The notes beneath the pieces were generated by a model. It had not been told where the DNA came from, made no database searches, and saw nothing but the letters and a program-made list of their open reading frames with translations. This document shows positions 36,927 to 37,006 of a stretch of DNA of 64,000 nucleotides, piece by piece. The position numbers and the translations under genes are program-made. The first letter of the stretch is position 1. The number at the start of each line of letters is the position of its first letter. The stretch lies in the NCBI RefSeq assembly GCF_003334765.1, contig NZ_QOWT01000011.1; one strand, given 5' to 3'. This DNA is from Escherichia coli. Lineage in GTDB: Bacteria; Pseudomonadota; Gammaproteobacteria; Enterobacterales; Enterobacteriaceae.

Positions 36927-37006
36927 AACAGCTCACTTTGTTACCGATTAATCTTTAATACTGCATTAAAGAGTAGTTAAAGTTGTTAACAAAGTGAGCT
37001 ATTTAC

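Follow-up and report, generated by a model that had tools for sequence, protein, structure and literature searches.

A conserved inverted repeat between ubiV and yhbW of Escherichia coli as a candidate mRNA end structure and translational insulator

How two adjacent genes that run in the same direction and follow opposite oxygen logic can be kept apart is the question raised by the ubiV-yhbW spacer of Escherichia coli. It was studied in a stretch of 64,000 nucleotides (NCBI RefSeq assembly GCF_003334765.1, contig NZ_QOWT01000011.1), the whole of which is called the window here. The window is K-12-like, the region being 96-100% identical to MG1655 and to thousands of E. coli chromosomes. Both genes lie on the minus strand, ubiV followed by yhbW, with a spacer of 80 nt. 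The ubiUV operon is anaerobic, activated by Fnr and oxygen-independent (PMC10470549), whereas yhbW, annotated as an O2-using flavin monooxygenase, belongs to the SoxS/MarA/Rob regulon (mar/sox/rob/RamA; PMC4310594, PMC6561319). An inverted repeat in the spacer had been noticed in an inspection of the letters (the sequence-only reading), which placed the yhbW ribosome-binding site (RBS) in its helix and offered three roles: a translational insulator, an RNase III target or a paired operator for a dimeric regulator. We find that the repeat is real and non-random. To the reading that it works as RNA we give an even chance: it would end or cap the ubiUV mRNA and mask the initiation region of yhbW, which would be expressed from a promoter in the loop.

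The inverted repeat and its predicted fold

The ends of both genes agree between the list of open reading frames (ORFs) and the RefSeq annotation of MG1655. Between them the following features were found.

37007..37009, minus strand: stop codon TAA of ubiV, 6 nt from the 14-bp core of the upstream arm (ORF list, MG1655 annotation)
36987..37003, minus strand: upstream arm (arm 1) with a perfect 14-bp core at 36987-37000; predicted anti-RBS strand in read-through RNA
36944..36986, minus strand: loop of 43 nt, with the nested hairpin and a presumptive core promoter of yhbW
36953..36971, minus strand: nested hairpin CUUUAAU-GCAGU-AUUAAAG on the mRNA strand (DNA ctttaat/actgc/attaaag), from sequence and fold
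36927..36943, minus strand: downstream arm (arm 2), UAACAAAGUGAGCU plus GUU; translation-initiation region of yhbW with a C/A-rich stretch and the weak Shine-Dalgarno (SD) sequence GUGAG
36924..36926, minus strand: start codon ATG of yhbW, 3 nt from the 14-bp core of the downstream arm (ORF list, MG1655 annotation)

The 14-mer agctcactttgtta (AGCTCACTTTGTTA) at 36930-36943 of the plus strand has its exact reverse complement, taacaaagtgagct, at 36987-37000, with 43 nt between the arms, and has no second occurrence anywhere in the 64-kb window. A repeat search lengthened the arms to 17 nt with 94% identity (36927-36943 and 36987-37003). The three added pairs are A-U, A-U and U.G on the mRNA strand, the single odd position being a G.U pair. 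The outer stem of 14-17 bp is AT-rich, with five G-C pairs in its 14-bp core. The letters and coordinates of the perfect repeat, the sequence of the nested hairpin and the distances of the arms from the ubiV stop and the yhbW ATG were all confirmed as they had been given in the sequence-only reading.

The window was simulated 200 times with a first-order Markov model and screened for perfect inverted repeats with arms of 14 bp or more and loops of up to 120 nt; these averaged 0.04 per 64 kb and appeared in 3.5% of the runs. The real window contains two such loci. The other one, AGGGCGTTATCTGAC / GTCAGATAACGCCCT at 52325-52339 / 52342-52356, has a spacer of 2 nt.

Folding of the mRNA strand gave a stable structure of −28.8 kcal/mol (z = −4.8 against shuffles), as had been anticipated, in which the outer 17-bp helix is predicted to stack upon inner helices of 4 bp and 9 bp. 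The opposite strand reached −27.3 kcal/mol (z = −4.5), about equal to the mRNA strand, and folding energy alone can therefore not say which strand matters. In Rfam the sole match in this region of the window was to the eukaryotic miRNA hairpin mir-1285, whose 27 bits are below its gathering score of 56, and eight orthologous loci matched no family.

Conservation of the element

The element was found in 5,419 of the 5,426 complete E. coli genomes, in a single copy per genome, and all of its 86 nt are identical in 3,700 of them. Six variant E. coli strains were sampled; five are changed only outside the 14-bp arms and one carries one change in the downstream arm. The comparison beyond the species was based on orthologous spacers from 18 Enterobacteriaceae lineages and on 35 metagenome variants from a pattern scan anchored on the upstream arm, which returned Klebsiella aerogenes, Enterobacter, Citrobacter-like and Kluyvera-like loci and no K. 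pneumoniae. The element is kept beside yhbW in more than 12 Enterobacteriaceae genera. Across the 18 spacers and the metagenome variants the arm 1 core GCTCACTTTGTTA(AC) is near-invariant, and the upstream block GCTCACTTTGTTAAC almost so. The downstream block ACAAAGTGAG, 4-5 nt 5' of the yhbW ATG, is likewise almost invariant and the central ATGCAGTAT is conserved, whereas the 17-21 nt that separate the blocks vary freely. The sequence AAGTGAG within arm 2 is invariant in 18 of 18 Enterobacteriaceae spacers. Outside the family, in Erwinia, Rahnella and Providencia, only this downstream AAGTGAG remains and arm 1 is absent; the spacers of these three genera gave no helix above chance level.

Loops of 43-45 nt occur in Escherichia, Salmonella, Citrobacter, Superficieibacter, E. 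asburiae and Pluralibacter, and loops of 92-126 nt in other Enterobacter, Cronobacter, Franconibacter, Atlantibacter and Entomohabitans. Despite this loop range of 43-126 nt, helices of 12-17 bp are retained in most Enterobacteriaceae genera. The nested hairpin is kept in part, being broken in Salmonella and showing one compensatory change from A-U to C-G in Cronobacter. It overlaps a candidate −10 element, so that its conservation may be that of a promoter.

Pairing between the arms was examined in an 18-row alignment of both arms, with shuffles and a 3' partner column slid by 1-3 positions as controls. Standard pairs were present in 90.3% of the pair cells, compared with 35-48% when the partner column was slid. 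Only the outermost pair varies on both sides (G-C in five rows, A-U in four), and covariation is uninformative because both arms are nearly invariant. Many of the one-sided changes yield G.U on the mRNA strand. At the level of aligned sequence the data show conserved complementarity, not compensatory evolution. The sequence-only reading had looked to related genomes for arms that are conserved and that covary: the former expectation held strongly, whereas the arms hardly vary and do not covary.

In form the element, whose short AT-rich core is flanked by terminal inverted repeats, resembles a miniature inverted-repeat transposable element (MITE), and mobile repeats do frequent the spacer (ERIC, REP, an insertion sequence of the IS110 family). 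ERIC and REP are, however, inserted solely outside the arm-loop-arm unit, which itself occurs once per genome at the same place beside yhbW in more than 12 genera and has no flanking direct duplication. The MITE is rejected on account of the single copy. With a chance expectation of 0.04 per window, either a mobile-element relic or a chance palindrome is scarcely credible.

The 3' end of the ubiUV mRNA

Two further features concern the end of the upstream transcript.

36925, minus strand: mapped 3' end of the ubiUV transcript (MG1655 3303449, PMC6131387; converted via MG1655 coordinates)
36827..36886, minus strand: C-rich, G-poor tract (26 C, 10 G) at yhbW nt 41-100, candidate Rho-utilisation (rut) region

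The SMRT-Cappable-seq data of MG1655 (PMC6131387, Supplementary Data 1) contain a forward transcript from a transcription start site (TSS) at 3301438 to a transcription termination site (TTS) at 3303449, labelled 'novelTTS' and fully covering b3158 and b3159. In the window this end lies 5 nt past the 14-bp stem and 2 nt past the 17-bp stem. The ubiU TSS is represented by 162 reads, of which 16 stop exactly at the TTS and 53 at most 50 nt downstream; 28 reads pass the TTS, with a median extension of 76 nt (PMC6131387). Compared with the 1,008 nt of yhbW this extension means that ubiUV RNA essentially never covers yhbW. Given the mapped 3' end and the scarce read-through, the hairpin is first of all the 3'-end structure of the ubiUV mRNA, and long read-through transcripts are rare, not merely untranslated. 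The published long reads thus place a transcript end at the base of the helix that the sequence-only reading described, whereas the ubiUV-yhbW read-through RNA it invoked is rare. A 'novel TTS' that was so far a row in a supplementary table is hereby assigned a structure. With regard to Rho sensitivity and exonuclease trimming of this end, a search of the PMC7815308 supplements gave no hit, and apart from the SMRT-Cappable-seq TTS no further 3' ends were found in the supplementary data of Cappable-seq, of Term-seq or of three papers on MarA/SoxS.

An intrinsic terminator was considered and rejected. The consensus terminator scan found none in the spacer, no stretch has at least five U in eight, and GUUAUGACU stands directly 3' of the stem; the loop of 43 nt with its nested hairpin compares with 3-8 nt in such terminators, and the stem is AT-rich. 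Sequence and scan agree in this with the earlier statement that there is neither a U-tract nor a canonical terminator. Beyond the helix, the C-minus-G excess of the tract at 36827-36886 is at the 99.9th percentile of all 60-nt segments of the window on both strands.

The hairpin may be merely a 3'-end structure for the ubiUV mRNA that terminates weakly and non-canonically or blocks exonucleases, with an RBS overlap that has no regulatory meaning and is due to the short spacer. The mapped end at the helix base, the stable fold and the match to the protective stem-loops of PMC6061677 are all in line with such a structure, and the block of yhbW translation is one predicted from calculated folds. 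However, a protective hairpin needs no set sequence, yet the arm 2 sequence precedes yhbW in Providencia, where ubiV is not upstream. The distance from arm 1 to a conserved −10-like motif is moreover fixed, and where ERIC or REP elements add 100-125 nt to the 3' untranslated region (UTR) of ubiV, the hairpin stays with yhbW and not with ubiV. We therefore consider a role restricted to the 3' end unlikely.

RNase III cuts duplexes of a length that the stacked helices of 17, 4 and 9 bp approach. The repeat could accordingly be a processing site at which the ubiUV and yhbW RNAs are separated or destabilised, a role compatible with masking of yhbW. The mapped 3' end lies outside the helix, however, not within it, and processing by RNase III appears improbable to us.

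Accessibility of the yhbW initiation region

The calculated fold of the E. coli read-through RNA gave GUGAG an unpaired probability of 0.0002, as compared to 0.56-0.69 in RNAs started at 36948-36953. Similar behavior was obtained in silico for most orthologous spacers: in read-through RNA GUGAG was unpaired with a probability of at most 0.005 in 16 of 18, and in RNA modelled from the predicted own start with 0.4-0.97 in 13 of 18. Clear exceptions among the own-start RNAs were Franconibacter (0.02), Entomohabitans (0.18) and Enterobacter Ag1 (0.28). These calculations support the earlier proposal that the helix would bury the yhbW initiation region in ubiUV read-through RNA. The 'SD-like GUGAG' on which that proposal centred is present and covered by the helix, but it is a weak Shine-Dalgarno sequence. 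Its best duplex with the 3' tail of 16S rRNA amounted to −5.0 kcal/mol, a value equalled or bettered by 32% of random 19-mers from the window. In view of the weak SD, what the helix would hide is the whole initiation region, that is the C/A-rich stretch together with the weak SD.

Masking of an RBS by sequence of the upstream gene is the classical design of translational coupling. A ribosome ending at the ubiV stop would melt the helix and free yhbW initiation, and YhbW would be made only when UbiV is translated. In K-12 the terminating ribosome could reach arm 1, which begins 7 nt past the stop. An ERIC of 125 bp (about 26% of E. coli, and E. albertii) or about 100 nt of REP-like sequence (Salmonella) can, however, stand between stop and arm 1 with the arms intact, and translational coupling is rejected because of these insertions. 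Transcripts also seldom extend into yhbW, and the biology is opposite, with an anaerobic Fe-S pathway beside an annotated O2-using monooxygenase of an oxidative-stress regulon. Coupling is thus regarded as very improbable.

Throughout the Enterobacterales examined, Providencia, Erwinia and Rahnella included, the RNA motif AAGUGAG stands unchanged 4-8 nt 5' of the yhbW ATG, despite being a weak SD. It may have a further role as a site for a small RNA, as a protein site or as a translational enhancer. In vanillin-stressed E. coli, YhbW is the most induced protein, up 77-fold, with a rise of about 13-fold in its mRNA (PMC6561319). The near-invariance of AAGUGAG and a protein rise exceeding the mRNA rise leave room for a further post-transcriptional layer.

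Regulation of yhbW and a candidate promoter in the loop

The regulation of yhbW has been shown to be independent of ubiUV. Besides the induction by vanillin, there is the action of RamA in vitro: the purified protein shifts the yhbW promoter of Klebsiella and raises its activity 6.9-fold (PMC4310594). Since ubiUV transcripts end at the hairpin, yhbW must have its own promoter, for which the spacer offers the following candidates.

36985..36999, minus strand: GCTCACTTTGTTAAC, marbox-like 15-mer, candidate MarA/SoxS/Rob site; overlaps arm 1, forward relative to yhbW, at about −41 from the predicted start
36958..36963, minus strand: CAGTAT, candidate −10 hexamer (CAnTAT across genera), from conserved spacing
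36949..36952, minus strand: predicted transcription start of yhbW, 6-9 nt after the −10 candidate; RNA from here would lack arm 1

The motif CAnTAT is found 21 nt downstream of GCTCACTTTGTTAAC in 14 of 18 genera and 20 nt downstream in three, the intervening nucleotides not being conserved. A weight matrix was built from the 33 MarA ChIP-seq sites of PMC5684230, true sites scoring 3.6-15 bits. With this matrix GCTCACTTTGTTAAC scored 8.47 bits and ranked 53rd of 127,972 window positions (top 0.04%). In class II promoters the marbox is in forward orientation and centred at −36 to −55 from the start (PMC12052159), and GCTCACTTTGTTAAC, forward and with its centre at about −41 from the predicted start, is inside this range. 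The working marbox pattern gcannwwntgnnaaa with at most two mismatches matched 211 times versus 225 expected by chance and had no such match in the spacer, where a sigma-70 consensus scan found no site either. From sequence and spacing, the stress promoter of yhbW probably lies inside the loop, and arm 1 as duplex DNA is probably also the activator site or −35 region of this promoter, of MarA/SoxS/Rob type and class II. The promoter and its activator are the weakest part of the model.

A marbox of a different position and orientation, gcacaatctgcttac at 37690-37704 of the plus strand inside ubiV, is reported as a strong MarA site by ChIP-seq in enterotoxigenic E. coli (ETEC) and by in vitro binding, labelled '(yhbV)'. 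It is located about 770 bp upstream of the yhbW ATG, is reverse relative to yhbW and has the third-best matrix score in the window; no obvious core promoter was seen downstream of it.

The marbox scores also bear on the possibility that the element acts at the DNA level only, both arms being opposite-oriented sites for one monomeric AraC-type activator (MarA, SoxS, Rob, RamA) or for another protein, with RNA pairing as a by-product. Next to the score of arm 1, reversed arm 2 reaches 4.0 bits (top 0.4%) with the MarA ChIP matrix. In addition, yhbW is a direct RamA target in Klebsiella (PMC4310594), and arm 1 is more invariant than pairing alone demands. Independent copies of a degenerate motif would, however, not match at all 14 positions, unspecified ones included. 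Any plausible start site lies upstream of arm 2, which reaches to 3 nt from the ATG, the spacing of the arms ranges from 57 to about 140 bp, no ChIP-seq peaks are reported on the spacer, and the RNA 3' end at the helix base would be left unexplained. Two activator sites are thus a decidedly unlikely origin of the repeat. The paired operator for a dimeric regulator, as suggested by the sequence-only reading, is rejected because the arm spacing varies: the arm centres are 57 bp apart in E. coli versus about 106-140 bp in Enterobacter, Cronobacter, Franconibacter and Atlantibacter, and half-sites at a fixed spacing are incompatible with loops of 43-45 nt in seven genera versus 59-126 nt in others, both arms being kept.

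The RNA-level role and the candidate promoter can be combined into one proposal, in which a single word of 14-15 bp would be read twice. As DNA it would serve as the activator site and −35 region; as RNA, made only by transcription from ubiUV, it would be the anti-RBS strand that silences yhbW, exposes the transcript to Rho and caps the mRNA. The origin of transcription would then decide translatability, and an O2-using monooxygenase would be kept out of an anaerobic transcription unit. This double use is advanced tentatively, at well below even confidence.

Natural variants of the spacer and neighbouring features

The ERIC/IRU-type repeat of about 125 bp seen in about 26% of the complete E. 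coli genomes and in E. albertii is inserted exactly at the 37000/37001 junction, at the outer edge of arm 1. It lengthens the 3' UTR of ubiV, leaves the inverted repeat untouched and has a median of five megablast-detectable copies per genome. In Salmonella, the place of the E. coli ERIC, 3' of the ubiV stop and 5' of arm 1, is taken by about 100 nt of REP/BIME-like palindromes, GCCTGATAAGCGTAGCGCCATCAGGC. Repeats thus seem to insert preferentially at this junction.

Two E. coli strains have altered the unit itself. In M19 an insertion sequence of the IS110 family is located inside the yhbW-proximal arm (locus 552-2010; window about 36774-36935) and the 5' end of yhbW is deleted; since the IS110 family is directed to specific short sequences, the arm may be similar to one of its targets. 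In TUM1226 the spacer is 38 bp, owing to a natural deletion of most of the loop between direct repeats TAACAA. The remaining AGCTCACTTTGTTAACAACAAAGTGAGCT is a tight hairpin without the presumptive yhbW promoter, and this natural mutant is suited to testing the model. In two Tenebrionibacter-like contigs a ccdA/ccdB toxin-antitoxin pair is located between ubiV and yhbW on the opposite strand, with both arms recognisable beside yhbW.

The loops of Enterobacter spp., Cronobacter, Franconibacter, Atlantibacter, Entomohabitans and Kluyvera-like contigs contain an extra conserved block of about 75 nt between CAnTAT and arm 2, in the order ACAGC / UUUCUGGC / variable hairpin / GCCAGGCUGG / AAGAAGACCUUCAAUCUGAUGAC / GCUGU. 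The block has a consensus fold with some compensatory pairs in the apical hairpin and no Rfam match, and it would be located in the 5' UTR of yhbW. It may be an undescribed cis-regulatory RNA that is missing from Escherichia, Salmonella and Citrobacter. Two metagenome contigs of unrelated organisms carry palindromes built on GCTCACTTTGTTAAC; these are probably due to chance, as about 13 chance matches to the 18-mer are expected in the collection. Elsewhere in the window, the mtr leader region (34384-34481, plus strand) gave a cluster of sub-threshold Rfam matches of 18-24 bits, including Trp_leader and the trpB motif.

Discussion

The repeat is present and conserved, the calculated folds of the two RNAs differ and the 3' end of the ubiUV mRNA is at the helix base. 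The mechanism built on these results would run as follows. Polymerase coming from the Fnr-dependent ubiUV promoter and passing the ubiV stop would transcribe both arms, which would then pair. A helix of 14-17 bp over a loop of 43 nt would bury the yhbW initiation region, and no ribosome would load. The unprotected, C-rich start of yhbW would be open to Rho, and transcription would stop within about 50-80 nt. Trimming from 3' to 5' would leave the helix as a protective terminal stem-loop, with a sharp end 2-5 nt past it. RNA from the putative promoter in the loop would start 3' of arm 1, so that its initiation region would be free and translatable. Among the roles offered by the sequence-only reading, the translational insulator fits the evidence best. 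It is supported in part, and the mapped ubiUV 3' end as well as the independent induction of yhbW had been missed.

A number of observations weigh against this mechanism. In the 18-row alignment no covariation measure exceeded the shuffles. An excess of transitions that preserve G.U pairs was considered as a sign of selection on the mRNA strand and then rejected: where arm 2 varies it is rich in A and C, so that every transition creates a wobble pair, and the excess, being confounded in this way, is not evidence. Arm 1 is unchanged where arm 2 varies, arm 2 persists without arm 1 in Providencia, Erwinia and Rahnella, and from these alignments each arm looks independently constrained. The arms were also retained in two lineages despite ccdAB between ubiV and yhbW, and read-through from ubiV can therefore not be the sole selective reason for them. 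The TTS is carried by 16 reads and by one of two growth-condition sheets. Orthologues lacking the repeat have a similar C-rich tract, as do those with it, and the tract is thus not specific to the element. For the promoter part, GCTCACTTTGTTAAC has three mismatches to the working marbox pattern, and the supplements of Cappable-seq, SMRT-Cappable-seq, Term-seq and the MarA/SoxS papers contain no yhbW start site. In ETEC the local MarA ChIP-seq peak falls not on the arm but within ubiV (37690-37704), about 770 bp upstream of yhbW, and the Salmonella ChIP table for MarA, SoxS, Rob and RamA has no yhbW peak.

If the proposed RNA-level mechanism is true, it would explain the separation of two adjacent co-directional genes that are 80 bp apart and have opposite oxygen logic. 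The locus would be a compact natural case of origin-dependent translation, with the downstream promoter nested in a hairpin loop, and as such of interest to operon annotation, to studies of Rho-dependent 3' ends and to the design of insulators in synthetic biology. It would open no new class of mechanism, being an undescribed instance of known ones in a fairly ordinary case of gene insulation.

Comparison with known systems

Like an intrinsic terminator, the hairpin is at the 3' end of a transcript that ends a few nucleotides after the stem. It differs by having GUUAUGACU in place of a U-tract, a loop of 43 nt instead of 3-8 nt and an AT-rich stem. MITEs and other mobile repeats differ from the element in that it is a single locus per E. 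coli genome without flanking direct repeat, the neighbouring ERIC having a median of five copies per genome. At the DNA level, the resemblance is to class II marbox promoters such as lpxC P2, lpxL P1 and rfaY P1 (PMC12052159), with a forward marbox-like 15-mer at about −41 from the predicted start, a poor −35 and a gene of the regulon. In contrast to these promoters, the candidate site is one by sequence that departs from the working consensus at three positions, MarA gave its reported ChIP peak elsewhere and the start is a predicted one.

For Rho-dependent transcript ends, Dar and Sorek 2018 (PMC6061677) described three elements in succession: a stable stem-loop with no U-tract behind it, an RNA 3' end placed precisely and shortly beyond the stem, and a rut region close by on the downstream side. 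The ubiUV end has a stable stem-loop of this kind (−28.8 kcal/mol, z = −4.8) that lacks a U-tract, as well as a steady-state 3' end 2-5 nt past the stem, seen in a single dataset, where one sheet out of two growth conditions has it. Downstream there is a rut-like tract, rich in C and poor in G, though orthologues lacking the repeat have one as well. Compared with the protective stem-loops of that study, the loop is unusually large, with 43 nt here (up to 126 nt in other genera), and the 3' arm is the translation-initiation region of the next gene, whereas Rho dependence and exonuclease trimming are what we infer for ubiUV.

Davis, Simons and Kleckner in 1985 and Schulz and Reznikoff in 1991 are said to have described fold-back inhibition of read-through transcripts for the transposase genes of IS10 and IS50. 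The left end of IS200 combines a terminator against impinging transcription with a stem that sequesters the SD (PMC4513863). In both cases, as calculated here for yhbW with its predicted start, sequence upstream of the own start pairs with the RBS region, RNA from outside is silenced and promoter-proximal RNA is translatable; a helix that covers the downstream initiation region, as in the IS10/IS50 type, is found in silico at this locus too. Unlike these transposons, ubiV-yhbW is a chromosomal housekeeping locus at which the own start is predicted. It further differs from them in that the anti-RBS arm may double as an activator site, and in that the same helix marks the 3' end of the upstream operon.

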